Source: Strigamia acuminata
Taxonomy: Eukaryota
Assembly (NCBI GenBank): GCA_949358305.1
Contig: OX442314.1
Coordinates: 6,138,001 to 6,202,000, forward strand
Reading direction: 5' to 3'
DNA: 64,000 bases
In this document: one piece after another, positions 1,071-28,949 of the stretch
How the letters are laid out: every line of letters begins with the position of its first letter
Numbering within the stretch: the stretch's first letter is position 1
Program-made: the position numbers and the translations under genes
The notes under the pieces: model-generated
Told to the model about the DNA's origin: nothing
Seen by the model: the letters and a program-made list of their open reading frames with translations, nothing else
Database searches by the model: none

Positions 1071-1499
1071 GCTCAGACTGTAGTGTCTGTCAGCCAGCGA
1101 CACGTCGCTCAGCTGCCGCCGGGGACTCGGCCTCGGCTCGTCGTCCACCGCCAGCGAGCACATGCCGTTGCTGTCCACAGACCGGAAGTCCATGTCTTCA
1201 GCCGTCGAATCCCTGCGCTGCGTTGTTACCCGCCGCAGCGCAAGGAACCGTCCGCCGCCGTTCTTGCCCTCGTTGCTCGTGCTTTTCCTGCGCTTGCCCT
1301 TCTTCTCGTCCGAGCCGGACACCGAGCCCAAGTCCGGCTCGCCGAGCCTCTGTCTGCTCACGGTGGGCGTCGACGTGCACGTGACCTTATCGTAGGCCTG
1401 CGCGTAGCTGGGCACCATGGCCGACTCGGCGCCGAGCCCCTCGTCGTGCACCGCCACGATCTCAATCCTCGGCTTGTTCTGCTCGTTCTTGTCCGACTC
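1053..1499 (-). pseudogene. GC-rich ORF interrupted by the Polinton (3' part; ATG and codons 2-3 lie at 16924-16932)
   Basis: Removing the element and one TSD copy gives GCCAAC-ATG-GAG-TCG-GAC-AAG..., a 149-aa ORF MESDKNEQNKPRIEIVAVHDEGLG...KSRM* with strong Kozak context and high GC3. Product not recognised. Confidence 0.6.
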
Positions 1500-1937
1500 A
1501 GTAGTGGGTTAGTGGCAGTCTTGAAACAGGCGGTTCACGGTTCGGGGGTGGGGGGTGGTGAGGGTTAAGTGGGGGGAGATAAGGGGAGGGGGAGAAAAGG
1601 GGAGGGGGAAGATAAGGGGAGGGGGAGATAAGGGGAGGGAAAGATAAGTGGAGGGGGAGATAAGGGGAGGGGAGATAAGGAGAGGGGGAGATAAGGGGAG
1701 AGCTAAGTGGGGATGACTAATTGCCTCAATCAATCAATCTTATCATTCGATCAATGTGCCCTAGGCTATTATTTGTTATTGTTTTTCTTTACTTAAGTAC
1801 CTTGTTGTTGTTTTTCCCAAATTTTCAAAGGCCCCTTGTTTTTCTTTCCTTAAGCACCTTGTTGTTGTTTTTCCCAAATTTTCAAAGGACCCTTAGGCTA
1901 CTTTTAACCAAAGGAGAGATATTATTGGGTACTCATC
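1500..1937 (+). repeat. Left terminal inverted repeat of the Polinton
   Basis: Reverse complement of 16530-16923 with several substitutions and a different number of GGGGAGATAAGGGGAGG units. Confidence 0.95.
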
Positions 1938-1961
1938 AATGTCAGTGATGGAAAGGAATGG

Positions 1962-2010
1962 TAAAACAGGAAGTGAGCGGTTCAAAGGGGAGGAGTTATC
2001 CTGTATAAAT
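1962..2010 (+). promoter_or_regulatory. Putative promoter of the PC4-like gene (ETS-type AGGAAGTGA motif plus TATAAAT)
   Basis: 35-bp block 1962-1996 recurs with one mismatch at 3132-3166 upstream of alkB; TATAAAT at 2004-2010. Confidence 0.55.
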
Positions 2011-2056
2011 GCAACTCGCATTTTGGGATACTCACCATTTCTTTCACAAACAAGCT

Positions 2057-2710
2057 ATGACTACTACTTCAAGCAGCGGGATCTACTCTCTTGGTGGGGA
2101 GATCTATTGTCAAGTCAATCCATTTCATACCGATGTCTACATCCACCTGAGACGATTTCTGTCATACCCGAACGGAAAGCTGTATCCCTCTCGTGATGGT
2201 ATGTGCATGAACGTTAAGACATTTTACGAATTTGTGGAACATTGGAAGCAGATAACGAGTGAAATTGCGACTTTGAAATCCAAGAAATCATCAACCATTG
2301 AGTGCGAAGGTGGCGTTTTAGTCACCATATCTAAGTCGAAAACAGATGATGTATCTGTGATGATATGTCGTTCATTTGCACCAGAGAAGTTTATTCTGCT
2401 ATCGTATGAACAATGGCGTCAACTCAAGAAGCAGCGATCATCCATATTTTCGGGCATCGATGAAGTTCTGTCAATGTTGCATGAGACCAACCTTCAATTT
2501 CCAACTATTCTCGAGGAAACAACTGCAAGTCCATTTGTAACTCCAACCACATCTCAAGCTCCGATTGTTTTGAAAAAGAAAAAGGAGAGAAAGCAAATGA
2601 AGAAGAAACCATATCAGAGACCCATCCTTGGTGTACATTTTGTGGATTCATCTGATGAGGATGTTGATTCAAAACCTACCGGTGAACCTGCTGATACTGA
2701 TGATGAATAG
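2057..2710 (+). CDS. PC4/Sub1-like ssDNA-binding protein with basic/acidic tail
   Basis: YSLGGEIYCQVNPF..VYIHLRRF...LYPSRDGMCM matches the PC4 fold pattern; a second degenerate copy ends ILLSYEQWRQLK. The upstream ATG (2009) overlaps the TATA box, so ATG 2057 is preferred. Confidence 0.7.
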   Translation: MTTTSSSGIYSLGGEIYCQVNPFHTDVYIHLRRFLSYPNGKLYPSRDGMCMNVKTFYEFVEHWKQITSEIATLKSKKSSTIECEGGVLVTISKSKTDDVSVMICRSFAPEKFILLSYEQWRQLKKQRSSIFSGIDEVLSMLHETNLQFPTILEETTASPFVTPTTSQAPIVLKKKKERKQMKKKPYQRPILGVHFVDSSDEDVDSKPTGEPADTDDE

Positions 2711-2911
2711 ATTTTTACATAATTTGTTATTTGTATTGATAGAATAGAAATTGTATACTTTAGTTTAAATTTTTGTACTTATTTCTTTTTTTTTGTATTA
2801 ATTATATAAATAAAATTTGATTGAATAAGAATACATCTTTTTTCTTTCATTAATATCTTTAACAAATAAGTTAGGTTGTAAAAAGGCTATTTGTGTTATA
2901 TTAGTAGAAAT

Positions 2912-3215
2912 GGAGGATAAAACAGAAAGTGAGTGGCGCAAAGGTGTCCTCTGCTATGATTCGTTGAAACCATTTTAGACAAGTTTCAACATGTCTCAGC
3001 AATGGCACTGTATGGAAGGGAGGATAAAACAGAAAGTGAGTGGTGCAAATGTGTCCTCTGCTATGATTCGTTGAAACCATTTTAGACAAGTTTCAACATG
3101 TCTCAGCAATGGCACTGTTTGGAAGGGGGGATAAAACAGGAAGTGAGCGGTGCAAAGGGGAGGAGTCCTATGCTATAATTTCTTGAAACCACTTGGGGCA
3201 AGTTTAGACATGTCT
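2912..3215 (+). repeat. Tandem 107-bp repeat (two near-identical units and a third diverged unit) upstream of alkB
   Basis: Units start at ~2912, ~3019 and ~3126, each containing TAAAACAG(A/G)AAGTGAG. Confidence 0.9.
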
Positions 3216-3283
3216 CCGATTGGACAGCGGAAAAGGTTAACTGCTATATATACCAAGCTGATGTTTCTTTTGGATGAAAAAAC

Positions 3284-3982
3284 ATGGAGAAGACGACAAT
3301 AGAGCCTGTTTGTTGGAAAGATATTCTCAAGCAGGATTTACACTTGCAGTATGGACTTCTATTCAACAAAGAAGTAGCTGATTCTACATTTCAAAAGCTG
3401 GAAAATGAAATCACATACTATACAGGTAGACTGAGTCAAATCAAGATTTATGGCAAGTGGATCAATATACCGAGACAACAAGTTGCATTTGGTGATGCTG
3501 GATTGAAATATTCATTTTCCGGTAATACTTTACCGGTTAAAAGTTGGACTCCTCTTTTGCGTGATTTACGAGATGCCGTTCAATTTGTTACCGGACATGA
3601 ATTTAACTTTGTTCTCATTAATCGTTATGCAAATGGAAACCAGACTATTGGTGAACATCGAGATGATGAGGCGGGACTTCATCCAAACGCACCAATAGCA
3701 AGCCTATCTCTAGGACAAAACAGAAACTTTGTTCTTCGTCACGTGTCTCTTAAGCGAAAGTATACTATTCGCAACTCAGTTTTACCACCAAAGCCGATTT
3801 CTCTCACATTGGAACACGGTAGCATTCTGCTAATGCACCAACCTACAAACCGTTTTTGGTATCACAGTCTTCCAAAGCAAAGTTCTGCACTTCATCCGCG
3901 AATCAACTTAACTTTTAGAAACATCATTCAAAGTAAGTTCCATTTATTTAATGATATTATTATAAATGAATATTTATTTTAA
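3284..3982 (+). CDS. alkB: ALKBH2-like Fe(II)/2-oxoglutarate dioxygenase (AlkB family)
   Basis: KIYGKWINIPRQQVAFGD, YSFSG, FNFVLINRY, HRD (HxD), IASLSLG, LEHGS, WYHSLP, RINLTFR: all AlkB catalytic motifs intact and ALKBH2-like. The 3' end may be spliced (3933-3994). Confidence 0.93.
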   Translation: MEKTTIEPVCWKDILKQDLHLQYGLLFNKEVADSTFQKLENEITYYTGRLSQIKIYGKWINIPRQQVAFGDAGLKYSFSGNTLPVKSWTPLLRDLRDAVQFVTGHEFNFVLINRYANGNQTIGEHRDDEAGLHPNAPIASLSLGQNRNFVLRHVSLKRKYTIRNSVLPPKPISLTLEHGSILLMHQPTNRFWYHSLPKQSSALHPRINLTFRNIIQSKFHLFNDIIINEYLF

Positions 3983-3995
3983 TTCGTGTTTTAGA

Positions 3996-4655
3996 ATGAA
4001 TTCGGAACAATTAAAAAACGTAGGTTGTATTATTGACTTTGAGGGATTCCAGTTTGGTCCCGACTTTCTACTCAAGGAGCTCGGAGTGTGTTTTCTATAC
4101 AAGGATTCTACTTTAAGTTATCACTTTCGTGTTGGACAATTCGACAAACTAGAACCAAAATGGCAAAAAGTTGCTGCTTGGTTAAAACGCAATATCCACG
4201 GTATGAAGTTTGAAGATGGTCCTGATGATCTACCTCAAAGCTGGATTCCTTTTATCCTCACATCTTTACATATAAATTGTGTTCAGGAAGCCAACAGACC
4301 AATTATTGCATTCAAAGGTGGTCAAATTGAAAAAAAATGGTTAATCAAATGTGACATTCCATACCTCGACCTCGAATCATTGGGATGTCCGAAATATCAG
4401 GACCTTCATTTTAATCTTGATCCTGATTCAAAACCTTTATGTCACCTTCATGAATCCTTACTTCCCTCCAAGTTAATGCACTGTCCCCAAGCTGAGTGTC
4501 TTTGCTTTAAGGAGTGGTGTATTGAAACTCAAGACCATTCTTATCTCGACGATCTTGAAGCCCTCCTTCATGGAACGGGAAATGAAAATGCGAACGGAGA
4601 TGATGCGGCGAATCCGGGAACGGAAGAAAACCTTTCACAACTGGCCTGTTTCTAG
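3996..4655 (+). CDS. DEDD/DnaQ-like 3'-5' exonuclease-fold protein with Cys/His cluster
   Basis: IIDFEGF (ExoI-like DxE), LKELG, HG, FKGG..EK, DLE..GCP, CHLH...HC. ATG 3996 is in frame with the tracked ORF 3966-4655. Confidence 0.6.
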   Translation: MNSEQLKNVGCIIDFEGFQFGPDFLLKELGVCFLYKDSTLSYHFRVGQFDKLEPKWQKVAAWLKRNIHGMKFEDGPDDLPQSWIPFILTSLHINCVQEANRPIIAFKGGQIEKKWLIKCDIPYLDLESLGCPKYQDLHFNLDPDSKPLCHLHESLLPSKLMHCPQAECLCFKEWCIETQDHSYLDDLEALLHGTGNENANGDDAANPGTEENLSQLACF

Positions 4656-4896
4656 ACACATCGCCGACCCTTCCACCTTAGCCCGTGCTGGATTCAGATA
4701 CTTGAGTGAAAATGATCATGTTGAATGCGTCTACTGTCTCGGTCGATTAAAAGAGTGGAAACGTGGTGACATACCTCTTTTGGAACATTATTCTTGGTAC
4801 GCCTATTGTCCATTAATGAGAATTACTTTTGAAAAAGGACTGAATGAAGAGTGCTTGATTTATAATTCCATCTATGGGTTAGATACACCAGGTTGA
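4570..4896 (+). CDS. Single-BIR-domain inhibitor-of-apoptosis-like protein
   Basis: RKKTFHNWP...LARAGFRY..DHVECVYC-x16-H-x6-C exactly fits the BIR zinc-binding signature; no RING. First in-frame ATG at 4570. Confidence 0.9.
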   Translation: MEREMKMRTEMMRRIRERKKTFHNWPVSRHIADPSTLARAGFRYLSENDHVECVYCLGRLKEWKRGDIPLLEHYSWYAYCPLMRITFEKGLNEECLIYNSIYGLDTPG

Positions 4897-4925
4897 TAGA
4901 AACACCACATTTTGTAACAATTTCT

Positions 4926-5450
4926 TTATTTCTTTGTTTTACTTATTTGCACGATACAATTTTTATCATACAATGTTGACATCTTAAAATTAAAAATATG
5001 TTTAACAAATTTTGTAACTTTTTTATCATTGTAATATGGATTTCTTGGATTAAATTGATTTTTTATATAATCAAAGTCTTTTCCTTTACACCTATTATAA
5101 ATAAAATAAATGCAATAATATCCACATGCGAGACTACACGGTGATTGATAGGTTTGAGTAATCCTGTTGGTTAGTTTACATCCGATATTTTGAATAAAAG
5201 CAGTAATTTCTTTTGCTGGTGGTTTACCAAACGAATCAAAATATTCAATCGCACCGGGTACTTTCTCATCTCGAAACAATGCTACCCAATGTTCGCCTGG
5301 TTTTGTATGGGGATGAGTATTTACAACAAACGCGCATGTTTTGTTTGTTTGTTGCGATGAGGATAGCAAATCAATTGGATATACACCCTTAAAAATTTGC
5401 CTCGTCACTGAATTCTTAGATAAAATCTCCGTTATTTGGAGCGTGTTCAT
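4926..5450 (-). CDS. Adenain-like cysteine protease (virion maturation protease)
   Basis: VVNTH..PGEHWVA (His), EYFDSFG (Asp), YQ..S.ACGYYC (Gln/Cys). Confidence 0.95.
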   Translation of the reverse strand: MNTLQITEILSKNSVTRQIFKGVYPIDLLSSSQQTNKTCAFVVNTHPHTKPGEHWVALFRDEKVPGAIEYFDSFGKPPAKEITAFIQNIGCKLTNRITQTYQSPCSLACGYYCIYFIYNRCKGKDFDYIKNQFNPRNPYYNDKKVTKFVKHIFNFKMSTLYDKNCIVQISKTKK

Positions 5451-5458
5451 ACCTTGAG

Positions 5459-6796
5459 TTAAAATTCAGTAATGATATTCCTTGCTCTATCAATCTCCAG
5501 TATGGATTGATATTCCGCCAGTACTAATACGGTTATGGTTGCAGTTAAGGCTTTATTAAATCTCATTTCAATCCTAACATTTCCTTGTTTTACTAAATTC
5601 AAATGTGGTTGACCGGCGGATGCATCTTGCGTTAAATCAAATCCAAATAAAACATTTCCGCCTAAACAATAATCAGTATACGAAATGCCTAATCCTAAAT
5701 CTTTATCTGCTCTATTCATAGTTTGGTATAAGGTAATAAATTCACGAGCTGCTTGTCCTTTTGCAAAATCTGGCTTATATGGACTCATTGGTACTCCTTT
5801 TCCATCCAAAAATACTTGAAGAAAATTTATTCCTTGGTTTTCAAAATTATACGGATTACTGGCATATGATCCGCAGTAGGCAGTGTTTTTCACAAGACCA
5901 ATAATCAATCGGGATGGATATTGACCGAGAAATGCATTATCAATCATAGCAGTTTGCGATCCTGTAGCAATTGTAAATGTCTTAACTTCTACCCTTCTAA
6001 TGGGATATTTTGCATTACGTTGCTCTAATGCTTGATGATGAGCTAAGAGTACACTAGCGCTAGGAACTATCTTTTTTACAAATAAAGTTGCATCATTTAT
6101 AACTGTTTTATAGGCCGCCCCTTCCTTTTTTGAAATTAAACTAAATGCATCATTTTGTCTAGTAAGTGTAATTCGCAAGTCAACATTATTTATGAGATAA
6201 TGTGGTTGAGAAAAGATATCGCAGTGAAGTCTTCCAAACATCTGTAATTTTCCACAATCACCATCCTGCATGAGTCGATGATATCGTTTATAAATTCCAA
6301 ACTCCTCGTTAAAATCTGCTACTGTTGGATCTAAATCATCAAATGATCCTCCTGTATCCTCATAATACATCTCCACTGTTTTATAACTCTTTTTGGCATC
6401 ATTTGAAAAACTGAGAATTGTTTCGAGATAACTTCTATAACAATAATTTGAATCGGAAGCTGACACTAGCTTATCATTTAGTCTAACATCTATTTGACTG
6501 AACAATGAATGTAGGAATAAATTTGTAGGAGAAACCTTAGCTGTTTTTGTAATTACAGCCCCAGCACCATCGGTTACAGTTACATTTAGTAACAAGTATG
6601 TTTGACTCAAGTCAATGTACGTATCAGCAGTACCCTTGATTGAAAAATCTAATGGCTGTCCTGCAGTTACGGCTGTAATTGGATGGTATTCACTCCAATA
6701 ATTATCTTCCACAGTTATTTGTGTGAGTGGTAATCCAAAAATGTCTAGTTCTGGAGTCGCGCCTTCGGCAGATGATTCATGGGGAAATTGCGGCAT
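5459..6796 (-). CDS. Major capsid protein (double jelly-roll, Polinton PY/hexon-like)
   Basis: ELDIF..P.TQ, YHPI, YIDLSQTYL, LHSLFSQIDV.LN, YRSYLETIL, NPYNF, FDLT.D, EYQSILEID motifs typical of Maverick MCPs; size and position fit. Confidence 0.88.
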   Translation of the reverse strand: MPQFPHESSAEGATPELDIFGLPLTQITVEDNYWSEYHPITAVTAGQPLDFSIKGTADTYIDLSQTYLLLNVTVTDGAGAVITKTAKVSPTNLFLHSLFSQIDVRLNDKLVSASDSNYCYRSYLETILSFSNDAKKSYKTVEMYYEDTGGSFDDLDPTVADFNEEFGIYKRYHRLMQDGDCGKLQMFGRLHCDIFSQPHYLINNVDLRITLTRQNDAFSLISKKEGAAYKTVINDATLFVKKIVPSASVLLAHHQALEQRNAKYPIRRVEVKTFTIATGSQTAMIDNAFLGQYPSRLIIGLVKNTAYCGSYASNPYNFENQGINFLQVFLDGKGVPMSPYKPDFAKGQAAREFITLYQTMNRADKDLGLGISYTDYCLGGNVLFGFDLTQDASAGQPHLNLVKQGNVRIEMRFNKALTATITVLVLAEYQSILEIDRARNIITEF

Positions 6797-6798
6797 GG

Positions 6799-7281
6799 CT
6801 AATCAAATATGTCAGGTCCAAGAAGTGAAGTTTTCCTTTTGCAGGACTTCCTACGCACGTTCTTCTTCGGTCGAGTTCGTCTCTTAGACTGATTCTTTTG
6901 TTTGGTTACACGTCTTTTCTTTTGTTTACCATCCATCCGCTTTTGTTTGCCTCCTTTCTGTACACCAATCTTTTTTAAAAAATCCGATTTGGTTCGAACA
7001 ACCTGATCTTTAAATGCATTTCCAAATTTTCTCTTGTTTACACGCATATCGGAAATTACGTCTAATCCTCTCTTCAAACCATACGTTGCTGCATCCAACG
7101 CTCCACTTCTCACAAAAGGCTTTACAATTCGAAATGCGTCACTTATAAGTGAACCCAAACCATGTCCTTGTTGATAGCGAGATCCTACAAATATAGGAAG
7201 ATCTGCTCCACCTATTTGCGCATGATTTGAGCAATATCTATCCATGCAGATTTGAGGGTTGTGTTCATAGTGAAATCTCAT
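6799..7281 (-). CDS. Basic virion core protein with QxG motifs
   Basis: QIGG, QQGHGLG.L...FR and QKGG motifs, K/R-rich tail ending DIF. ATG 7281 lies just after the penton stop. Confidence 0.65.
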   Translation of the reverse strand: MRFHYEHNPQICMDRYCSNHAQIGGADLPIFVGSRYQQGHGLGSLISDAFRIVKPFVRSGALDAATYGLKRGLDVISDMRVNKRKFGNAFKDQVVRTKSDFLKKIGVQKGGKQKRMDGKQKKRRVTKQKNQSKRRTRPKKNVRRKSCKRKTSLLGPDIFD

Positions 7282-7285
7282 CTTG

Positions 7286-8416
7286 TCAATCCAATCTCTT
7301 CCTGAAGTGTAACGTTGCAACGACACGTCCAAACTCGAATGGTACTTTTTCTCCGGTGTCACCCCTTATAAGCACTTGTATGGATTCAAATTGCAATTTT
7401 GCCAGCGGTTTATAATGTGGATTTTCAAAAGTTTGGGAGATGTATTGTCCTCGCTCTTTTCCTTGAATCTGTATTATTCTTAACAGTGGCGCTAAAGTAT
7501 CCCCAACAATGTTTGGTTGTATTAGATTGCAATACAAGTACATATGATATAGTCCAACTTGTTCATCCATTTTATGAAAAGCTTCTGTTGTTTTTGTAAT
7601 TACACGCAAATCATTAAAACCGAGAGTTGATGCCAAGGCTTTATCAAGAACCAGCTTGGTGTTAATTGGCAAGTTAATCTCAATTTTCTTTGATGATATA
7701 TTAAAACTAAATGGTGCTTTATCAATAACTACGAGTGCTTTAAGATTTAAAGCATCTACTAATTGATCAGGTCCCGAATAATTTCCAGGTTTCAAGCTTT
7801 GTTTCTGTTTACCATCAGTCTCCTTTTCAATTGATAAATTCCAATTTTTATCATTGATAAGATTTGGTGTGAGACGTGGAGAATCACGAGCCGTCTTGGA
7901 TTCATCAGCGTAAAAATCATCATCTTCATCTTTCACAAAACCTAACACATATGCCAGCCTCTGCGGGATCATGACTTGAAACTTAGGCATAATTATTATT
8001 TCAAATCTTAAACGAGTGGAATTCCAGTGAAATTTAATTCCTAATTTTTGCAATGCTTTGTCAAGATCTTTAACTTTCTCATCTTTCTTGGTTGGAGATG
8101 TTAAATTATTATTTAAAAAGTTAAGAAACTCGGATATTAGCTTATTCTGCGGTAGGGATGCATCCACAAATTTGAATGGTGGAAATTTGATTGCATTGAC
8201 TTCATCCTTTAGTATTCGAAAATCGGCACCTCGGGGCAATAGAGCAGTACTCCAGCTTCTTAGATAAAGGAATTCAACCAGACCCACTTCCCAATTTTCA
8301 TCTAAATTAATATATGATGGTAATTGCGTATGAAATTCCGTTAATGTATTATTCGGGTAATAATCTAAGCTGCTATTTGATGGAAGACTCACATAGAAAC
8401 TCTGTTCCGGATCCAT
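7286..8416 (-). CDS. Minor capsid protein (penton, single jelly-roll)
   Basis: FYVSLPSNSS..YPNNT...F...LP..I.L..WEVGL; C-terminal YLYCNLI....VGD..APLLRII, PHYKPL, G..VPF..G....LHFR. Confidence 0.88.
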   Translation of the reverse strand: MDPEQSFYVSLPSNSSLDYYPNNTLTEFHTQLPSYINLDENWEVGLVEFLYLRSWSTALLPRGADFRILKDEVNAIKFPPFKFVDASLPQNKLISEFLNFLNNNLTSPTKKDEKVKDLDKALQKLGIKFHWNSTRLRFEIIIMPKFQVMIPQRLAYVLGFVKDEDDDFYADESKTARDSPRLTPNLINDKNWNLSIEKETDGKQKQSLKPGNYSGPDQLVDALNLKALVVIDKAPFSFNISSKKIEINLPINTKLVLDKALASTLGFNDLRVITKTTEAFHKMDEQVGLYHMYLYCNLIQPNIVGDTLAPLLRIIQIQGKERGQYISQTFENPHYKPLAKLQFESIQVLIRGDTGEKVPFEFGRVVATLHFRKRLD

Positions 8417-8469
8417 GCCTGCTCACTTCTGATTGCATCATTGAGGTGACATCACCTCTTATATGAACA

Positions 8470-9069
8470 ATGTTTCATCATCCATTTAATGCTATTATTT
8501 CTGGAAGTTCGGGTACGGGCAAAACGGAGATATGCAAGAAAATCATCCGAAATGCGAGTAAAATGATTGATCCACCCCCACAAGATATTTGCTGGTACTA
8601 TTCAATATGGCAACCATGGTACATCGAATTTCCCAATGTGCAGTTCCACGAAGGATTACCCAATTTAAAGACTTTGGATTCATCAACGAGAAAGCTTTTC
8701 ATCATTGACGATCAAATGGAAAATTTAAATCAAGAGATTGGGTTATTGTGGACTAAATATTCGCACCATACGAGCACTAGTGTATTTTATTTGTGCCAAA
8801 ACATATTTCATCAAAGCAAATATCAACGAACTTTATCATTAAATAGTCACTATTTAATCCTTTTTCGAAATCCCAGAGATATGAATCAAATTGCAAAAGT
8901 AGGGAGTCAAATGTTCCCACAGCGAGGTAAATTTTTCATGTCAGCATTTAACGATGCAACAGCGCAAAGTTTTGGATATTTATTAATTGATTTGAAACCG
9001 GATACACCCCAAGATCAAAGAGTGAAGACTAATATATTTCCGGATGAATATACTATAGTTTACATATAG
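8470..9069 (+). CDS. Genome-packaging ATPase (FtsK/HerA, A32-like)
   Basis: Walker A GSSGTGKT, Walker B LFIIDD, SHH...YLCQNIF, RTLSLNSHYL, NPRD, GYLLID. Confidence 0.92.
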   Translation: MFHHPFNAIISGSSGTGKTEICKKIIRNASKMIDPPPQDICWYYSIWQPWYIEFPNVQFHEGLPNLKTLDSSTRKLFIIDDQMENLNQEIGLLWTKYSHHTSTSVFYLCQNIFHQSKYQRTLSLNSHYLILFRNPRDMNQIAKVGSQMFPQRGKFFMSAFNDATAQSFGYLLIDLKPDTPQDQRVKTNIFPDEYTIVYI

Positions 9070-9078
9070 ATTCCACCA

Positions 9079-9414
9079 ATGAAACGAGTAAGACGTCACG
9101 CTAATGTGCTCCGGGCCATTCCCGATTTAAATAAGAGACAAATCAAGGATTTTCTCAAACATTCTAACGATGATTTCTGTAAAACCATCTGTGAAATTTG
9201 TTTAAACATTATAAAAGGTACAATTAAGTTAGGAGCAAATCAGAAACAATCACTTTATCGAAGGAGAAGGTTGTTAAGAAAATTGGCCACTCCTACATCT
9301 TCATTCAAACAAAGACGGAACTTGGTCATTCAAACTGGTGGATTTTTACCACAACTACTCGCCCCAATTATTGGAGCATTAGTAGGTAAACTAATTAGTA
9401 AACGAAATGGCTAG
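9079..9414 (+). CDS. Small basic Polinton protein with C-terminal amphipathic helix
   Basis: ICEICLNII.G motif; QTGG followed by FLPQLLAPIIGALVGKLIS. Confidence 0.6.
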   Translation: MKRVRRHANVLRAIPDLNKRQIKDFLKHSNDDFCKTICEICLNIIKGTIKLGANQKQSLYRRRRLLRKLATPTSSFKQRRNLVIQTGGFLPQLLAPIIGALVGKLISKRNG

Positions 9415-10291
9415 GAAAATGGTTTTAGTACCGCAGGAAATGATGTCATCTTTACAATATTTGAAAAAGAACTATGATGATATTGATCCGCAATATCAAA
9501 AATTGCAAAAGATTGAATCGTCAATAGAGGAAATTTTCAATGATGCAAACTTGAATGATGAAATGAAAGCTAAACTTATATCGACACTTCAATCTCAATT
9601 TGGAAACTTCAAACAGAAGCTAATGAAACAATTAAATGCACCAAAAACTGTTACTATATCACCTCCAGCTCAATCCACATCTCCACCTCAATCACCACCA
9701 CCAATTGTTTCGCACTTATCCACATCTCAATCGCCATTTGTTCTTCAACCATTGGATAAAATAATGTTGAATAAAATGTCAAAAGATCAAAAGAAACAAG
9801 CTATTGCGTTAATGGAAGTTATGAATTTGAATCCAAGGTTGAAATGGAGCAATCTATCGGAAATGATTATAGATGGAGTAAAAATTCCAAATACAACCAA
9901 AGCTGATCTTATAAACTATGCCATAAGAAACCGCCCGAAGCAAAATGTAATTCCTATTGGTCAGTCAGAGTATATTAAAATTTTGATTGATTCAAATGTA
10001 CCAAAAGAATACATTATCAACAAGAATTTAAGAAAGGAATTAATTAGACCGATGAGCACTTCAACTCCCACAATTACTCGGGACATTCATAGAGATTCAT
10101 TAAGTGGAAATGAGTCCATCCTCAATAATCAAACACTATCAGATCAAGAGCTGGCAGACCTAGAGTACAGTTGGGCCCATTACGGAACACCAAACAAAAC
10201 TTCAAGATTTCATCAAGACCGAGACGAGAGTGCATTTAAATATAAAACACCAAGTTCCGGTTCACAAAAAAGGAAAAAAATAAAGAAATAA
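9407..10291 (+). CDS. Polinton protein of unknown function (MARKMVLVP start, coiled-coil and Pro/Ser-rich linker)
   Basis: 294-aa ORF packed between the ATPase-adjacent gene and the integrase; W...E.IIDG..IP.T...DLI pattern. Confidence 0.6.
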   Translation: MARKMVLVPQEMMSSLQYLKKNYDDIDPQYQKLQKIESSIEEIFNDANLNDEMKAKLISTLQSQFGNFKQKLMKQLNAPKTVTISPPAQSTSPPQSPPPIVSHLSTSQSPFVLQPLDKIMLNKMSKDQKKQAIALMEVMNLNPRLKWSNLSEMIIDGVKIPNTTKADLINYAIRNRPKQNVIPIGQSEYIKILIDSNVPKEYIINKNLRKELIRPMSTSTPTITRDIHRDSLSGNESILNNQTLSDQELADLEYSWAHYGTPNKTSRFHQDRDESAFKYKTPSSGSQKRKKIKK

Positions 10292-10331
10292 ACAGCATAT
10301 CTAGGAGCATAGAACAAAGGTAGAAAAACAT

Positions 10332-11426
10332 ATGGCAGAGCATCAATTGAAAGATATCTACTTTAATCTAAGAAATCCTGCCGGATTTAGTAGTCGAGAT
10401 AAATTGTTCCATGCTGCACGTAATCGGGGGGTACAAGTTACCAGAAAGGAGATTCAAGATTGGTTACAAGGACTAGACTCATATGCCTTACATAAACCAG
10501 TTCGATACAAGTTTCAACGCTCTAAGACTATTGTACCATCTATTAATTACCAATGGCAATCGGATTTGGTTGAAGTTGGAAACATAGCAAAGGAAAATGA
10601 TGGAAATAGATATTTAATGACTGTCATTGATGTATTTTCACGATATGCGTATATTGAAGCTTTACCAACAAAGTCTGCGCAACATATTATAAAAGCTTTT
10701 GAAACAATTCTAAAACGTGCCAAGACTAAACCCCTTTTTCTACAGACCGATAAGGGAAAAGAATACTTAAATAAAGCTTTTCAGGAATTCTTACTAAAAA
10801 ATAACATCAAACATTTTACAAGTGAAAATGATGATATTAAATGTTCACTTTGTGAAAGATTAAATCGGACCATAAAGCAGAAAATGTGGACTTATTTCAC
10901 ATATACCGGCAGACATCGATATATTGACCAACTGCAAACATTTATTGATTCGTATAATCATAGCGTTCATCGAACATTAGGAATGAAACCTGTTGATGTT
11001 ACGAAAGAGAAAGAACCGGCAGTGTTTTACCACTTATATGGTGATACAATAAATAAAAGACATAAAAAATTTAAGTTTAATATTGGTGATGGTGTTAGAA
11101 TATCAAAATCAAAAGTGGTTTTCCGAAAGGGATACAGGGGAAGCTATTCGCATCAAATTTATTATATTGCCAATCGATTAATCCGACCACCAGAAGTTGT
11201 CTATATGCTTAAAGATTACAATGATGAACCTTTACTCGGTACATTTTATGAATTTGAGTTGCAGAAAATTAATAAACCCAAGGATGCGGAGTATGCTGTA
11301 GAAACAGTATTAAAGTCTAAAGGCAAAGGTGCGAATAAATTATATTTTGTAAAGTGGATGGGTTATGGAGATGAATTTAATTCCTGGATTTCCGCTGATG
11401 ACTTACGAGACAACCCACCATTATAA
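10332..11426 (+). CDS. Retroviral-type (rve) integrase with C-terminal chromodomain
   Basis: WQSDL (D), QTDKGKEY (D), CERLNRTIK (E), YNHSVHRT; C-terminal YAVETVL...YFVKWMGY.DEFNSW chromodomain. Confidence 0.96.
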   Translation: MAEHQLKDIYFNLRNPAGFSSRDKLFHAARNRGVQVTRKEIQDWLQGLDSYALHKPVRYKFQRSKTIVPSINYQWQSDLVEVGNIAKENDGNRYLMTVIDVFSRYAYIEALPTKSAQHIIKAFETILKRAKTKPLFLQTDKGKEYLNKAFQEFLLKNNIKHFTSENDDIKCSLCERLNRTIKQKMWTYFTYTGRHRYIDQLQTFIDSYNHSVHRTLGMKPVDVTKEKEPAVFYHLYGDTINKRHKKFKFNIGDGVRISKSKVVFRKGYRGSYSHQIYYIANRLIRPPEVVYMLKDYNDEPLLGTFYEFELQKINKPKDAEYAVETVLKSKGKGANKLYFVKWMGYGDEFNSWISADDLRDNPPL

Positions 11427-11480
11427 TTTGTATACACATAAATAATAAAGATATATTTCGATCATTGCATATGCACTTGT

Positions 11481-11867
11481 TTATTTAACAATAGTTACAT
11501 TCGAATGGAGAAAAGAGATTGCTCGAGTTAATCTAATCCATTGATACCAATTTAAATTAATTCCTTTGATGGATGGACCAGCTCAGCTAAACTGTCTGAT
11601 ATCAAATATTACATCATCTCCACGTTTGCAAATATTTAGTTGTTTTCCATTTCCTAGATCAAAAGTGGAATTGCATCCATTGGATACAGGCAACATTTTC
11701 ACTACATCCACAGTTGGTTGGATTAAGGTTGGAGGAGAGTACATCAGAATCATGATTTGTAGAATAACGATACAACATCCAACAACAGAGAAACTTCCAG
11801 TCGTAATCCATAATTTATGATTTTCAAATAAGAGCATCAGGTTTTTCTGTAATCCTGCTCTGTCCAT
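11481..11867 (-). pseudogene. Hydrophobic-segment + PC4-like gene containing an in-frame TGA (11583-11585)
   Basis: FDLGNGKQLNIC..DVIFDIRQFS*AGPSIKGINLNWYQWIRL: the PC4 pattern continues in frame past the stop to TAA at 11481. N-terminal hydrophobic stretch FSVVGCCIVILQIMILMY. Confidence 0.65.
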
Positions 11868-12050
11868 GGTTTGTGAAAGAATGACACGATAATATATATA
11901 ATAATGGTTTTATTTTATAAAAATAATAATAATAATAATAATAATAATTTCATTTACAAAATAAATTACATGATAAGATAATGATATAATAATAATAAAA
12001 ATATGTAACAGTTTTGTTTACAAAATAAATAAATAAATAAATAACACTTT

Positions 12051-15000
12051 TTACAAAATAATATTGTAATGCCCATGAGCTAGAGTTGTTACACCATCAC
12101 TCAAAATGTACCTTTTATCATCTCCAGCAGACAAAGCAATTTTCTTTTGCAAAATTGTATATAATTCGTGATCGAAAGAGCGAATTTGATTTGATGAACG
12201 TGCGTTTTCTATTTTGTTGAATAGACACTCTTTGTAGTCTTTGTGGCGAAGTTGATTTCGCACACTTCGAGGTACACCTTTTGCTGTCTTTTTTTCTTGA
12301 TCTTTTGTTTTAAACGAATACATTTTACATCGAAGTCCGAGAAATTCCTGTATGCATTTCCCGGACATTTCGTCTTTAAACTTTCCAATTACCTTTTTAT
12401 TCTTTGTGCTGTATAGGGAGTGTGTGGAAGGATAATCTGAAGTGTCGAATTTTTCTAAATCTTTTTTCATGTCTGCATAAATATCATCTGTTTCGATATT
12501 ATACGTTAAACTATCCGTATCAGTAAAAAGCAACTTGGCTTTGTTCCCATATGTTTTTTTGATATGATTATAATGAAAATCATACATAAGGACTTTGCTA
12601 AGTTCTAGAATGCAAAAGCCCACGTATATGGGTCTATTTAATAGGATATTTCTTTTCTTTAAATGTACACCTACAAGATCTTCATTGAAAATCTTGAACT
12701 CGTGAAAAGTTGGTGAATTTAATAATTTAGTCACTCGCTTTGGATTTTGCACCAACCTCACATCAACACGTTTCCTGACGGATTTGAGCGACTTCCCAAA
12801 AACACTATTATTCATCAATTTGAAGAAGTCCTTTTGAAAACTATTGGTTGCTTGTTTTCGCAACTCAGTATTTAAGCCAATGTACTTTGCAAGCCAATCA
12901 GATTGTTCAAATTCCAGAATTTTATGAATTTTCGTGACTTTCATTCCCAATTTCAAATACAATTGGAGGTTTTGGTAGTGGATAATGTATTTTGTTTTGT
13001 TAGCAAGGTTAGGAACTAATTTGGGAGATGGGTGATGTTTTTGTTCTAGTAGGTTAAGGTGTTCGAGACTGTAGGGTGATAACATGTTTTCAGTTACTGT
13101 TAGTCGTTCGGGAGCAAGAGGATAATCGTTATGGGAATCATGGAGTTCTTTGGGATATTCTAAATCTACTTCCAAAATATATCCCTTTGTGCCGGTATCA
13201 CTAATGCTTAACACATCAAAATCATCGGTGGGCGGTATCCATTTGAAATTATGAGTTGGCAAATATTGGTTCATTGCCCAGCCGTACAAGTTATTCGCAT
13301 TGAGATAGATGATGTGATTGGATGGAAGGTCCTTTTTATAACCATCTATATCTTTGTGATTGGCTTTAGCAAATCGATGGCTAATCATTGATATACCACC
13401 GCGAATACCATTTTCAATAAAGACATGCATAAGCGGATCCGTTAACAGTTCTAATTTGACATCTGTTAGTTTCAGACATGCCCCCCACGAGAGACCGGGT
13501 GTTGTGAAATAATTGCAACAATCCAATTTATAAGTCTCTAAACAAATTGATCGAAAATTTTCAAAGACGTCAGCTAGCAGCAAAACGTCAATCAAAACAT
13601 AAAGGTCTTGATAAACACCGAGATTTAGGATATTGAATTTATCCCACACTTTCTTTGCATGAATATAATCAGATTCGGATACACTTTGCGCACTTAGAGT
13701 ACTGTAAAATGCAGATATGGGAGGAAGTTGGACTTCGTTGAATTTGATCCAAGAGTCCATGTACTCATATGGAAAAATACCTTTCCGTAATAACAAACCG
13801 ATTTGATCAGGTTTGAAATGTTGATTCATTATTCGGAATTGGTTTGGATCACTTTTGAATAAATTAGCAACCAATGATTCTAAAGATGCATTCATAAATT
13901 GCAGACTATCGAGAAATCGAAGATTTCCGAGTGAAAAAGTAATATATCGTTGCATGTTGGTTGGAATACAGCTTATTTCACGATCTTTATACTTTCCAAT
14001 TCCCTGCATTAACAAATGTGAATCATAATTTTTTAAGTTATGAAACACAACGGGAATTTGTTTAGATGTTCTGCGATACATCAGATTACAAAAATTATGA
14101 GCAGGGCCACGGAACTTGCCAGTAGCATGATCATGGTCCCTTACTTTCTTTTCATTTTTTAAAAATGTCTTATTACAAATGTGACAAGATGTAGCACTTT
14201 CCATAAACAATTTTTCTTCATTTGATAAATCCATTGGAAGATTTAAAGCCATAAGCTTTCCCAACTCTACTTCCAATTTAGTAATGTGATCAAGAAAATG
14301 ATCAACTGCATTTTCACCTCGATATACCGATGGAGGTTGATGCAGTTTACCCTCTGTATTGATTACGGCATAAGCATAACCTGATGGAACGTGCTTGGAC
14401 ACTTTTTGCACTTTGCTTGTCTCATCTTTTTTAACATTTTTAACAAGCAGTGACTCGAAATCTGCATATATTACAAATGGGACTTTAAATTGTTTATGGA
14501 AATCAGTAAAGTGCATCCATTTTGTTTCATCAGTGGGGTATTTAACTTTTTGAAGTCCATGGGTAGAGCAGTACTCCAAGTGATCTTTTAGTATCCGTTC
14601 TGACGAACATCTGTGCAGACAATATTTACAATAGTGAGCTTTGGGATCATGATGTGTCAATGAATGTAACAGTTTATTTAAATTTTTAATCCAGCAATAA
14701 TGTTGGGTTTGATCATTAGCAAAAAGTAACAAATTTATTTGGGTTTTATGTTCCAATTTGCTAATGTATAGAGGAAACACTTCTTTTTCGAAACCAAACA
14801 CATGAACGCTAATAGAATTCATAGTTTCGAACTTGGGGATTTGTTGAATACTCATTGGGAATGAAAGTCCGGTTAAATCTAAAGTGTTTCGATACATAGT
14901 ATAATTTGAAACACGATGAGGATTGGAAGGTGCAGTATGCAGAGCAGCTAAAACACTCCAGAGAAAGCACAAAGAATCTTCATTTTGCACATTTATTATT

Positions 15001-16436
15001 GCTTTCTTGTCTGCTAAAAATTTGGGAAGTGTGATATAAGATCTTCCAGCTAATGGGCGATATCTACCAATATTTATATGCATTTCTACCACCGCTTCAA
15101 ATACCCAACCACTACCATCTCGTTGAAATTCGGCGCAGGAACGTTTAATTTTCTCGTACGCCTCTAATAATTGGTTCTCGAGATCCGATTCAACGAGCGC
15201 AATATAGCAAATGCTTCGAAAACACGCAATGGTTTCCGTATCACCACTCTGTGAGGTTCGAGTGAAATGTATATTAACAGCGATATAATATTTTACCGCT
15301 TTCTTTTTAATCAATTGAAAATTTAAAATACGTTTCACTCGACTGTGGTGTTGAATGAAAAAGTGATTTAAATCACCACAATCATTACCGGGAATTTTAT
15401 ACGTGTTGACGTTTCCCTCTAATGCATCAACACACGGATCATCGCAGGGTAGTGGTTGCGGATGTGGAACGGCAGGTAGAGGATGAACATGAACTTGCAT
15501 GTGTTGAAGTAAATTTTTTTTTAAAGAAAAAGACTTTTTGCAAACATTGCAAGGAAATGTCTCTTTGCTGCGATTGTGAACTTTTTTAACATGTCGCAGC
15601 ATGTCATCTTTACGCTTAAAAACATTTGAACATATTTCACACTTGAATGTGCTTTTTGCAAGAGTATGTAAATGCAGAATATGTCGTTTCAAAGTAGAAT
15701 TACAAGAAAAGATTTTCTTGCAGTACTCACACAAATATACTTTCTGTCCACCTCCAATTTGTTGCACTAAAGTCATAGGAGATGGGGGATTGACGATGCG
15801 GCTTGTTCCTGCTTGCTGCAAATTTGGTTGATAGTGGTACACAGGAACTGGAGACTCGCACGATATCGATGGAATGCACGATTGAGATGACGCAGGTTCA
15901 GATTGATTGTCGCAGGTTGGAGTTGGCACAAGTTGAGATTGAATGACGTAGGATGGAGATGGTACAGGATGAGAGGGAATGATGACGGTAGGTGGTGAGA
16001 GTGGATAAATTGGAGAATAATTATAAATCCATGGAGAATCAATGTATCTATTTTCTTCATCGGGTAGAGGATTGGGTGTGTTTACTTGCGAAAAGAGAGA
16101 TTCTTCAATTTCCGTAAGCATCTCTTCAAATTCACAAATATTATGTTGCACTACTTGATTATGGAATTGATGGTTAATCAAGACAGGAACGGGAGACTCA
16201 CATGATGTCAGTGGATTGCATGATTGAGATGATGCAGGTTGAGATTGGTTGATGATGGTAGGCGATGAGAGTGGATAAATTGGAGAATGATTATAAATCC
16301 ATGGAGAATCATTGTATCCATTTTCTTCATCATCAACATCTAGCAGTGGATTAGGTGTGTTTACAGGAGGAAAGAGAGATTCTTCAATCTCCATAAACAA
16401 CTCTTCAAATTCAGACTGAATGTGGTTAAATTCCAT
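12051..16436 (-). CDS. polB: Family B DNA polymerase of Polinton type with N-terminal C2H2 zinc fingers and an EndoVII/HNH-like insertion; motif A Asp replaced by Asn
   Basis: YADFES (ExoI), FHNLKNYDSH (ExoII), RKGIFPYEY, YLNANNLYG (motif A), KLMNNSVFGK (B), FTDTDS (C); three CxxC-x12-H fingers; CHIC...DHDHATGKFRGPAHNFCN. ATG 16436 preferred because 16508 overlaps the TATA box. Confidence 0.95.
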   Translation of the reverse strand: MEFNHIQSEFEELFMEIEESLFPPVNTPNPLLDVDDEENGYNDSPWIYNHSPIYPLSSPTIINQSQPASSQSCNPLTSCESPVPVLINHQFHNQVVQHNICEFEEMLTEIEESLFSQVNTPNPLPDEENRYIDSPWIYNYSPIYPLSPPTVIIPSHPVPSPSYVIQSQLVPTPTCDNQSEPASSQSCIPSISCESPVPVYHYQPNLQQAGTSRIVNPPSPMTLVQQIGGGQKVYLCEYCKKIFSCNSTLKRHILHLHTLAKSTFKCEICSNVFKRKDDMLRHVKKVHNRSKETFPCNVCKKSFSLKKNLLQHMQVHVHPLPAVPHPQPLPCDDPCVDALEGNVNTYKIPGNDCGDLNHFFIQHHSRVKRILNFQLIKKKAVKYYIAVNIHFTRTSQSGDTETIACFRSICYIALVESDLENQLLEAYEKIKRSCAEFQRDGSGWVFEAVVEMHINIGRYRPLAGRSYITLPKFLADKKAIINVQNEDSLCFLWSVLAALHTAPSNPHRVSNYTMYRNTLDLTGLSFPMSIQQIPKFETMNSISVHVFGFEKEVFPLYISKLEHKTQINLLLFANDQTQHYCWIKNLNKLLHSLTHHDPKAHYCKYCLHRCSSERILKDHLEYCSTHGLQKVKYPTDETKWMHFTDFHKQFKVPFVIYADFESLLVKNVKKDETSKVQKVSKHVPSGYAYAVINTEGKLHQPPSVYRGENAVDHFLDHITKLEVELGKLMALNLPMDLSNEEKLFMESATSCHICNKTFLKNEKKVRDHDHATGKFRGPAHNFCNLMYRRTSKQIPVVFHNLKNYDSHLLMQGIGKYKDREISCIPTNMQRYITFSLGNLRFLDSLQFMNASLESLVANLFKSDPNQFRIMNQHFKPDQIGLLLRKGIFPYEYMDSWIKFNEVQLPPISAFYSTLSAQSVSESDYIHAKKVWDKFNILNLGVYQDLYVLIDVLLLADVFENFRSICLETYKLDCCNYFTTPGLSWGACLKLTDVKLELLTDPLMHVFIENGIRGGISMISHRFAKANHKDIDGYKKDLPSNHIIYLNANNLYGWAMNQYLPTHNFKWIPPTDDFDVLSISDTGTKGYILEVDLEYPKELHDSHNDYPLAPERLTVTENMLSPYSLEHLNLLEQKHHPSPKLVPNLANKTKYIIHYQNLQLYLKLGMKVTKIHKILEFEQSDWLAKYIGLNTELRKQATNSFQKDFFKLMNNSVFGKSLKSVRKRVDVRLVQNPKRVTKLLNSPTFHEFKIFNEDLVGVHLKKRNILLNRPIYVGFCILELSKVLMYDFHYNHIKKTYGNKAKLLFTDTDSLTYNIETDDIYADMKKDLEKFDTSDYPSTHSLYSTKNKKVIGKFKDEMSGKCIQEFLGLRCKMYSFKTKDQEKKTAKGVPRSVRNQLRHKDYKECLFNKIENARSSNQIRSFDHELYTILQKKIALSAGDDKRYILSDGVTTLAHGHYNIIL

Positions 16437-16529
16437 GATACAAACAGTTCCTAGCACTTGCAAGAAGTGAAGAGAAGAGAGTAGGGAATTGCAGGTATAT
16501 ATAGCCATTACTAGTTTCCCACTGGTTAA

Positions 16530-16923
16530 GATGACTACCCAATAATATCCCTCCTTTGGTTAAAAGTAGCCTAAGGGTCCTTTGAAAATTTGGGAAAAAC
16601 AACAACAAGGTACTTAAGTAAAGAAAAACAAGGGTCCTTTGAAAATTTGGGAAAAACAACAAGGTACTTAAGTATAGAAAAACAATAACAAATAATAGCC
16701 AAGGGTGCATTGATTGAATGATAAGATTGATTGATTGAAGCAATTAGTCACCCCCCCCCCACTTATCCTTTCCCTTATCTCCCCCTCCCCTTATCTCCCC
16801 CTCCCCTTATCTTCCCCCTCCCCTTTTCTCCCCCTCCCCTTATCTCCCCCCACTTAACCCTCACCACCCCCCACCCCCCGAACCGTGAACCGCCTGTTTC
16901 AAGACTGCCACTAACCCACTACT
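16530..16923 (-). repeat. Right terminal inverted repeat of the Polinton
   Basis: Reverse complement of 1500-1937; ends ...CCCACTACT followed by TSD CGACTC. Confidence 0.95.
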
Positions 16924-16998
16924 CGACTCCATGTTGGCCGTGCGCGCTCTCAGCGGCTGTGGCAGCGTCAACGAGCCGGCCACATGGTACTGGTTGTT

Positions 16999-17140
16999 GA
17001 CGTCGCGCATATGAATAATTTCCCACGTCGCGCATACGAATTGCGACAAGATTCGTAAGCGCGACATCGCGTGTGTGAATATATACTTCGTGCAACAGGA
17101 TTCGTAACCGCGACAAGCACTGTCGCGGTTACGAATATCG
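16999..17140. repeat. CGCGAC/GTCGCG-rich array, right arm matching 930-1070
   Basis: GACGTCGCGCATATGAATA inverted relative to 941-959; internal hairpin ATTCGTAACCGCGACA...TGTCGCGGTTACGAAT. Confidence 0.7.
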
Positions 17141-27412: not shown

Positions 27413-28949
27413 TGTGACGGTTACACTGTCGTGTATTTTGCTAGTTAAAGACATTTATTTTACCCATAGATGGCGCTAGAACGATATAGCGGCAATTTCG
27501 AAGTTTGATTATTTTCAGTAATTAAAATATAAATTATTATTTATATTTTAGTCTGTTTCAGGTCTAAACAGTTATTTAATATATTTTATGTTGTTTTAAC
27601 TAGTTTACTACATAATTCTGTTGAATTATGTATAAATTTTACATCTGATATTCACCCCTCGCCACCCACTGAAAGTTGGACTAATTCCGGATTACAGTCA
27701 AAAGACTTAATCCGAAATGTGTCCTGCGTATCCAGTTCCTGGAACGGACCTAGTAGAGGACTATGTCCTGGCTATCCGCTTCCTAGAGCCTAGGATTGGA
27801 AGGGTTTAGCTGACCAGTGATCCCATTGGATCGATGATCAACCTATTGTCCAGTACGAGTATATATTCCCGTGTAAACCGGATATATCGCTCGCTCTCTT
27901 GTTGGTATTCTGTTCCTGACACCACTTGAACCGGGTCTGGTGGACTTAGGGCCACTTGGGTGAATTTAGTTCACTTTGTTGTACTTAGGGACAATGGATA
28001 GCTGTAGCTATGGAAAGGTAACATTTATCAATTTAACATTTATTCTCAGAATTTCAGTACAGGCCGGATAAGAAATACTTGATATTTAGTGTAAGAATCT
28101 AGAGTGGGTCGAAGATCCACAGACACACTCCCGCCTCTTCATGCCAACATTCCGTTGTAGAAATAAGTGTAGAATCTAGAGTGGAATATTGCAATTTCAC
28201 AGACGCATTATTTGGGTAATCGACGTGGAGTTATTTCACGGTTACTCTCCCGCCAGCCAGAACCGAGTGGAGTAATTTCCCGGTAATGGATAACCTTTCT
28301 TACGAGAAACTGCTGATTCAATTCGCTGTTGGACGATGGAACATCTTAATTATTATTTTGATGTTGATTGCACTTGGGGCAAAAAATAGCTCGGCGCTAT
28401 TTTAATTTATTCTTTATTTTTTCAGTTATTTTATCCCGCTTCGTGAATATAATATCATGTGGAATTCTGTCGAATTTACATGAATATTTATTCAACTTAT
28501 TTCGTCATGTTGATGACCGCGCTTTGCAATTATTATCCATATAATAATTACAAGTGTGACGACTGCAGAAAAGTTAACCGCACCTCTCGGATATAATTCT
28601 AAGCCTAACCATTACACACCTTTTAGATCCAAACCAGAACCAGTTAGATGTAGAAACCATTCGAATCCATACTAAGACGACATCTTTTACGTCCCGACAA
28701 TAAGACCGATACATATTCTTGTTATCCGACTGAAAACCGCAAGTGATATTATTATAGGGCTTTTGCCGACCGATTGTATAGTTTAACTTGCAGAATTTCG
28801 ACCATTTGTCGGTCTAGTATTTATATAAGTTCAAACCGGAATAAATTGTCATAAGATTTGAGAAATCACAAGCCTCCGTATTTTACACTTTCACACAAGT
28901 TCTCGCTCTAATTCTTTAGCAATTGTATCTCGCAAAGTCAATCGTCACA
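27413..28949 (+). mobile_element. Long LTR-like sequence (3' LTR) preceded by a polypurine tract
   Basis: AAGGGGGA then TGTGACGG start; ends CGTCACA; shares motifs (AGATGGCGC, GTATCCAGTTCC) with 58995-60907; absent from the paralogous region upstream of gene B. Confidence 0.6.

Follow-up and report, generated by a model that had tools for sequence, protein, structure and literature searches.

The closest described relatives of the element reported here are the animal Polintons (Mavericks), including the adintoviruses, with which it has in common terminal inverted repeats (TIRs), a 6 bp target-site duplication (TSD), a protein-primed DNA polymerase (pPolB), an rve integrase, an adenain and an ATPase (PMC8502044). 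Polintons are 13-25 kb long with TIRs of 100-1500 bp and TSDs of 5-8 bp (10.1101/2023.08.22.554363), and IAP and Bcl2 homologues have been reported in adintoviruses, whose maps also carry the gene labels MAEL and SSDBP (Supplementary Fig. S2 text, PMC8502044). Animal Polintons are abundant, but most of what is said of their life cycle is inference. An accessory gene kept by purifying selection indicates what endangers such elements in the cell, which here would be DNA alkylation during replication, the sensing of dsRNA and the death of the cell.

ALKBH2 repairs both single-stranded and double-stranded DNA, its wedge going with a preference for dsDNA (PMC2965238), and its RKK patch contacts the opposite strand (PMC3413135). 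Virus-borne Fe/2OG dealkylases with AlkB domains are known from plant RNA viruses and from giant DNA viruses (PF13532; PMC10598087). An ECHC finger is common to MAEL and the arenaviral exonuclease (ExoN), of which the latter suppresses innate signalling, and the DEDD residues lost in animal MAEL are retained in protist MAEL (PMC7968707). The window, the 64 kb stretch of DNA that was analysed, contains a Polinton in which an ALKBH2-type dioxygenase, a DEDDh exonuclease and a single-BIR IAP-like protein are encoded side by side.

Structure of the element

The boundaries and core genes are as follows.

1494..1499, no strand: left TSD, 6 bp, CGACTC, the same hexamer standing at 16924-16929
1500..16923: Polinton, 15.4 kb, with TIRs, 6 bp TSD and empty site
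1500..1937 (right edge approximate), + strand: left TIR, first letters AGTAGT, inverted match to the right TIR
16530..16923 (left edge approximate), - strand: right TIR, inverted match to the left TIR
16924..16929, no strand: right TSD, CGACTC, copy of the left hexamer
4926..5450, - strand: adenain-type maturation protease, PF00770 (Peptidase_C5) E=4e-7, above cut-off, convergent with the cassette
5459..8416, - strand: three ORFs in the places of major capsid, small basic protein and minor capsid, putative, from position and resemblance
8470..9069, + strand: packaging ATPase-like ORF, Pox_A32 E=9e-4 and Adeno_IVa2 E=0.003, both under cut-off
10332..11426, + strand: retrovirus-like integrase with chromodomain, rve E=7.7e-18, Chromo E=9.9e-8
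12051..16508, - strand: pPolB, 1485 aa, with Exo I and TDTDS motifs, PF02945 E=7e-7

The TIRs are 438 and 394 nt long and 85% alike, gaps included, and in three of the four sequencing runs contigs join position 1493 directly to 16924 with six letters shared, which represents the empty site. The element at 1500-16923 lies within the ranges of Polintons in size, TIRs and TSD. The three ORFs at 5459..8416 are putatively those of the major capsid, small basic and minor capsid proteins, an assignment that we base on their position and on resemblance; as candidates for the double jelly-roll major capsid and the penton of Polintons they gave zero matches to Pfam or other profiles and to PDB entries and a single-sequence fold model of pLDDT 31, and a search with a capsid-position ORF found no relative among the viral contigs searched. 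The pPolB was assigned by its Exo I motif, its motif A region and TDTDS, and no PolB profile in Pfam matched the ORF. Motif A deviates from the catalytic consensus in this copy, which may therefore not be autonomous. The original prediction had taken the cassette as support for a real viral life cycle, which an integrated cassette alone does not show; in this copy, moreover, motif A is altered. The pPolB ORF (12051-16508, - strand) also includes C2H2 fingers and an endonuclease-VII-like insert, reminiscent of pPolB2 Polintons, for which an HNH insert has been described (10.1101/2023.08.22.554363).

Other copies and selection

Copies were studied through the contigs of four sequencing runs; the three that contain the stretch come from two studies of a single organism. 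Contigs cover all 30 bins of the element in three of the four runs. Depth over the AlkB and ORF2 bins is about 375, 1270-1410 and 2520-2670 in the three runs, similar to the approximately 360-385, 810-1090 and 2470-3700 of the capsid-position and integrase bins, depth being distinct from copy number. In two or three of the runs, contigs with joints at 3224->16238, 12299->12893 and 2840->3113 bypass those stretches, a hint that some derivatives carry internal deletions and that the number of promoter-like blocks varies.

AlkB-bearing contigs fall into classes that differ from the window at 14 of 550, 62 of 493 and 106 of 578 letters, the last gap-free, so that AlkB occurs in at least three sequence classes of the same species (about 97-100, 87 and 82% identical); the 82% class may represent a host gene instead of a Polinton family. 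Among the AlkB differences listed (40 of 167, sequence classes mixed), 19 are synonymous, where a proportion of about 0.29 is expected under neutrality (kappa 4; p=0.008). Synonymous changes make up 14 of 21 outside a variable loop (omega about 0.14-0.2) and 5 of 19 inside it, the loop having been delimited after the data were seen. None of the differences listed creates a stop and none touches a catalytic residue. AlkB and the accessory block are apparently under selection, judging by these substitutions, and the view that the cassette is absent from other copies and evolves neutrally fails on the depth, which is like that of the core genes, and on the synonymous excess among the listed AlkB differences.

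Layout of the cassette

The accessory region comprises the following features.

1951..2010, + strand: first of the promoter-like motif copies (putative promoter role), core AAAACAGGAAGTGAG, and a TATA-like box
2009..2710, + strand: PC4-like ORF, 233 aa, predicted ssDNA-binding protein, PF02229 E=2.2e-5, 24.3 bits (cut-off 25 bits)
2906..3250, + strand: promoter-like block, three in tandem, copies 78-96% alike, followed by TATATA at about 3244
3284..3932 (to 3982 if unspliced), + strand: ALKBH2-type Fe(II)/2OG dioxygenase, from Pfam, the human ALKBH2 match and the tree
3933..3994, + strand: candidate intron, 62 nt, GTAAGT...TTTTAG, 84% AT, from the splice-like pair and the tail lengths of homologues
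3996..4655, + strand: DEDDh 3'-5' exonuclease with putative ECHC-type zinc site (ORF2), from a fold match; the domain ends at about 4541 and is followed by an acidic tail that overlaps the BIR ORF
4570..4896, + strand: single-BIR IAP-like protein, RING absent (ORF3), PF00653 E=9.2e-19

The three cassette ORFs (3284-3982, 3966-4655 and 4570-4896) all lie on the + strand between the TIRs; the original prediction of three close or overlapping same-strand ORFs inside TIRs is thus borne out by the ORF list and by the TIRs with their CGACTC duplication, and the repeated promoter block that it placed before them is found as motif copies at 2915, 3022 and 3129. The motif core, AAAACAG(G/A)AAGTGAG, has a further start at about 1963, before the PC4-like ORF. 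These are its four occurrences in the whole 64 kb, all on the + strand, with a TATA-like run after each group, and the PC4-like ORF at 2009-2710, with this motif in common, is part of the same block as the cassette. At its other end the cassette faces the protease gene on the opposite strand. The first + strand AATAAA 3' of the BIR is at position 5100, within the protease ORF, so that the cassette and protease transcripts would overlap.

The segment from 3933 to 3994 is probably a small terminal intron of the AlkB gene. No second GTAAGT/TTTTAG pair occurs within the element; the shuffle fraction is 0.032, the pattern having been picked after it had been seen. Beyond its last motif the AlkB protein would have a tail of 20 residues if unspliced and of 5 if spliced; tails of the homologues have a median of 7 residues (118 of 119 scored), and only three reach 20 or more. 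An 8 nt deletion at 3962 in one sequence class of the AlkB-bearing contigs would be poorly tolerated by a coding tail, and counts for the intron. In the spliced form the AlkB stop would overlap the ATG of ORF2 at 3996, the position from which ORF2 homologues align, and this ATG, rather than the ORF edge at 3966, is most likely the start of ORF2.

The ALKBH2-type dioxygenase

The AlkB ORF matches PF13532 (E=2.6e-28) and is nearer to human ALKBH2 (E=1e-64) than to ALKBH3 (2e-22). The HxD..H and RxxxxxR motifs, predicted to be intact, read H125-x-D127, H194, R206 and R212, completing the Fe/2OG catalytic residues, with N113 and Y115 also present. As in human ALKBH2 (PDB 3RZG, 3BTX and others), the whole catalytic domain is present, accompanied by the hydrophobic F1 wedge (I55-Y56-G57) and by E129, the equivalent of the base-recognition residue E175. 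The element protein differs from the human enzyme in its mobile-element location and in the RKK patch, which reads K-Q-S-S and has one basic residue, whereas 109 of 111 homologues have at least two. Q199 stands where 108 of the 111 scored homologues carry Arg, and the only other Gln at this place among them is in P0003, the sister protein in the tree (below). A contig of run X1 covers 3847-4060 with zero differing letters, so that Q199 is not an assembly slip, though X1 may be the source sample. In addition, the N-terminal extension of human ALKBH2 is lacking and with it the PCNA-binding APIM-like motif, which is found in only 40 of 119 homologues. Read from these residues, the protein is an ALKBH2 derivative in which the RKK patch has lost most of its basic character and the strand preference has possibly shifted.

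The best 120 of 715 database matches are 45-57% identical to the element protein, and the named entries among them are all animal proteins, the majority annotated as ALKBH2. In a tree of 69 rows (40 of these 120 homologues, 28 of 86 AlkB loci and the window protein; no AU test) AlkB is placed in an ALKBH2 clade of eukaryotic and mainly animal sequences (90/86), away from five IMG/VR sequences (identity to IMG/VR AlkBs is 37-44%); it had been predicted to derive from a host ALKBH2, and the phylogeny groups it with animal-type ALKBH2 away from the AlkBs of viral contigs. Its sister is P0003 (220 aa; support 92/89, and 94 in a quick tree of 86 rows), which comes from a contig of just 1120 nt without gene context. 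An arthropod-rich grouping is weak (SH-aLRT 81 in the 86-row quick tree) and is an open fork in the 69-row tree; the terminal branch of the element protein is long (0.48-0.69). A giant-virus origin was considered and rejected, the tree grouping the gene with eukaryotic ALKBH2 instead, and it is thus of separate origin from the AlkBs of giant and plant viruses.

Of 86 AlkB loci on viral and metagenome contigs, 0 have a tblastn match to Polinton core genes, so that an AlkB-bearing Polinton is shown in one species only; a single-gene search for AlkB relatives among viral contigs found none. The original prediction further held that a spliced host ALKBH2 had been captured. An animal-type ALKBH2 it is, but the route through spliced mRNA is unproven, both because one-ORF ALKBH2 genes are present in three animal genomic contigs (L011, L012 and L027) and because the element's own gene probably has a terminal intron. 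In two of these contigs, L011 and L012, the one-ORF ALKBH2 lies head-to-head with a HIT-zinc-finger gene, with a second AlkB-family gene nearby.

The ORF2 exonuclease

ORF2 has no match in Pfam, NCBIfam, PHROG, PDB sequences or phage records, nor does a profile built from it match PDB. A Pfam Toxin_cobra-type assignment (E=0.093, under cut-off) was rejected, as the match runs over the zinc cysteines that belong to the exonuclease fold. Word-indexed searches returned no homologues of ORF2 or of the BIR protein; HMMER finds 388 clusters for ORF2 at E<=0.001, and the blank searches therefore reflect low sensitivity. The DEDD nuclease that had been predicted is recognizable in the structure model, which has a pLDDT of 95 and matches DEDDh exonucleases. 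The top Foldseek matches are all arenavirus NP exonucleases (E 2e-5), while VIA Z scores are 12.1 for S. aureus DinG (rmsd 3.0, 146 aligned), 11.9 for Lassa NP (rmsd 3.5, 150 aligned), 11.8 for LCMV NP, 11.3 for Pol III epsilon and 10.7 and 10.0 for Maelstrom. Since DinG is level with Lassa NP (ties within about 1 Z), RNA as the substrate of ORF2 is not settled by these scores. Among viruses, Drosophila-associated adintovirus 2 (E=8e-9) and ichnoviruses have structural homologues of ORF2; the best viral structural matches (BFVD) are A0A0K1Y8R3 (1022 aa, E=3e-15), which would be a large viral protein containing an ORF2-type domain, and Q4FEW2 (199 aa, E=1e-9).

Conservation was scored in an alignment of 115 sequences, the window protein and 114 of 150 listed matches, those excluded being mostly partial; other alignments of ORF2 gave no usable pattern. 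The catalytic set is present at D14 in 107 of the 115, D/E16 in 111, E112 in all 115, H162 in 112 and E167 in 110, and the ECHC-type zinc set, as conservation rather than geometry, at E28 in 113, C149 in 114, H152 in 115 and C163 in 115. A regex search found a fused BIR or AlkB motif in 0 of the 150 matches listed. Because it carries both sets, we predict that ORF2 has nuclease activity, and that its substrate is most likely RNA. The NP ExoN of arenaviruses (Lassa, LCMV, Mopeia) and the MAEL domain have the same DEDDh fold and, as far as conservation shows, the same ECHC-type residues and a catalytic His beside the last zinc Cys, but ORF2 stands alone as a protein of some 180 aa, is encoded by a DNA element, is 15-19% identical to NP and 7-12% to MAEL, and, unlike animal MAEL, keeps the acidic catalytic residues, as D-E/D-E-E. 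While a language-model score of 0.89 for Maelstrom offered a lead, PF13017 (Maelstrom) matches 0 of the 115 family members at E<=0.01, and from such comparisons we classify ORF2 as MAEL-like and not as a Maelstrom orthologue.

The BIR protein

Where baculovirus IAP3 combines two BIRs with a RING, ORF3 has one BIR and no RING; like viral and cellular IAPs (baculovirus IAP3, cIAP2 BIR3, ML-IAP) it has a complete CCHC BIR with groove residues. The intact CxxC-x16-H-x6-C motif that had been predicted is read as C53-x2-C56-x16-H73-x6-C80, one complete BIR, in line with the PF00653 match. Aligned to cIAP2 BIR3, residues D67, E72 and W76 occupy what we take to be the positions of the peptide groove, beside which ORF3 has Arg where cIAP2 BIR3 has Gly.

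Possible roles of the cassette

The three genes form an intact accessory block in a multicopy Polinton. We regard it as about an even prospect that this block serves as an early self-protection unit, acting on replicating DNA, dsRNA and cell death. Protein-primed polymerases displace one strand, and N1 of adenine and N3 of cytosine are exposed in single-stranded DNA. AlkB is predicted to strip replication-blocking 1-methyladenine and 3-methylcytosine from the element's own DNA, and, with the Arg of the RKK patch lost and the I-Y-G wedge kept, may tilt to single-stranded or forked substrates; the wedge is ALKBH2-like, favouring dsDNA (PMC2965238), so that the tilt towards ssDNA rests on one patch. 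ORF2 would degrade dsRNA, acting on RNA in the manner of the arenavirus NP ExoN, and the overlap of the convergent cassette and protease would be one local source of dsRNA. The lone BIR may blunt apoptosis not by ubiquitin ligase activity but by acting as a decoy that binds IAP antagonists or the N-termini of caspases. The block would be expressed from the repeated motif, and through the short intron the stop of AlkB would be coupled to the start of ORF2. IAP and MAEL are patchy among other adintoviruses (PMC8502044), and the three genes thus need not be one functional module.

A more specific history seems to us possible but rather doubtful, namely that a Polinton lineage captured an animal ALKBH2 long ago, retuned it for its own strand-displacement replication by loss of the opposite-strand Arg and the N-terminal extension, and paired it with an active arenavirus-like dsRNA exonuclease that suppresses RNAi. 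If this were true, the 'MAEL' genes of animal Polintons, a large family, would be an unrecognised class of RNAi suppressors of DNA viruses and would link Maelstrom to the arenavirus NP exonuclease; with their full catalytic set and likeness to the NP exonuclease, the 'MAEL' genes of adintoviruses make RNAi suppression cheaply and directly testable. An ALKBH2 in a 15 kb element is an independent capture of AlkB beside those of plant RNA viruses and giant viruses, and offers a natural variant for probing the role of the RKK patch.

Other roles for AlkB are conceivable. It might serve counter-silencing or anti-surveillance, erasing 3mC left by DNMTs, or m1A, m3C or 6mA on the RNA or DNA of the element, instead of repairing spontaneous damage. 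DNMT-made 3mC is repaired by ALKB2, and methylation is higher in those arthropods that have ALKB2 (PMC7343188); the neighbours of AlkB are of counter-defence type, RNA could be accepted now that the RKK Arg is lost, and the element is somewhat poorer in CpG (o/e 0.75) than its flanks (0.96). The flanks themselves, however, are without CpG depletion (0.75-1.19 in 6 kb bins), which leaves the originally proposed trigger, DNMT-generated 3mC, unsupported, while the retained E129 points to ordinary 1mA and 3mC. We also know of no efficient removal of 5mC or m6A by ALKBH2-type enzymes, and consider such a role unlikely. That AlkB is passive cargo, a host gene carried without benefit, is very unlikely: Polintons have been reported with host cargo genes (PMC11131425, citing Widen 2023), its terminal branch is long and, in the variable loop, 14 of the 19 changes listed alter the amino acid, yet its frame is open and gap-free at 82% DNA identity, synonymous changes are in excess, its GC3 (0.30) resembles that of the element core genes (0.23-0.33), and it sits behind the element's own repeated motif.

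ORF2 could instead be a DNA exonuclease of replication or genome processing, forming a replication-support unit with AlkB and the PC4-like protein and leaving only the BIR to face host defence. The motif shared upstream of the PC4-like gene and the cassette fits such a unit, as do DinG, Pol III epsilon and ExoX, whose scores differ from those of the NP exonucleases by less than 1 Z, but the E..CxxH..HC..E arrangement of zinc and catalytic residues looks like that of the RNA-acting MAEL and NP domains, NP comes first in Foldseek and in identity (15-19%, against 8% for DinG and Pol III epsilon), and pPolB already has an Exo I motif; we judge this alternative improbable. The self-protection block remains our preferred reading of the three genes.

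Comparison with catalogued Polinton genes

The original prediction implied that the cassette was new to Polintons. This seems to hold for ALKBH2, which was not found in print, but not for the IAP and the nuclease (MAEL), which are in adintoviruses (PMC8502044); two of the three genes are thus known kinds of adintovirus accessory gene, while ALKBH2 appears uncatalogued. MAEL is only a map label there, its catalytic residues undiscussed in the available text. The terms AlkB, 2OG, demethylase and oxygenase are absent from the main text and the readable part of the supplement of PMC8502044; in the available parts, AlkB has 0 mentions in PMC6431247 and PMC11161782, and demethylase and oxygenase have 0 in PMC11071296 and PMC11131425. 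Within the literature covered, to which Repbase and subscription journals are external, no published ALKBH2 in a Polinton was found among the matches listed; in one paper the AlkB mentioned is that of giant viruses, and one review (PMC9406493) contains both AlkB and Mavericks. A search for Maelstrom together with Polintons gave only unrelated matches in the text available. The idea that adomaviruses encode AlkB was not borne out, with 0 occurrences in the adomavirus preprint listing.

Surroundings of the element

A GC-rich stretch surrounds the Polinton (930-1499 and 16924-17140), and short inverted repeats with many GCGACGTCGC-like words lie on either side of it. This stretch may be a further element, probably a repeated one, that the Polinton interrupted when it inserted, and its left ORF has no Pfam match. 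The flanks code for DEG/ENaC (ASC) channels (PF00858), which marks the host as an animal, with a tandem and inverted array of such genes at 22500-60000 whose paralogues are 64-95% identical. Three tandem arrays of minisatellites lie at 28919-29268 (units of 19/9-10 nt), 32014-32501 (21 nt) and 38512-38779 (22 nt).
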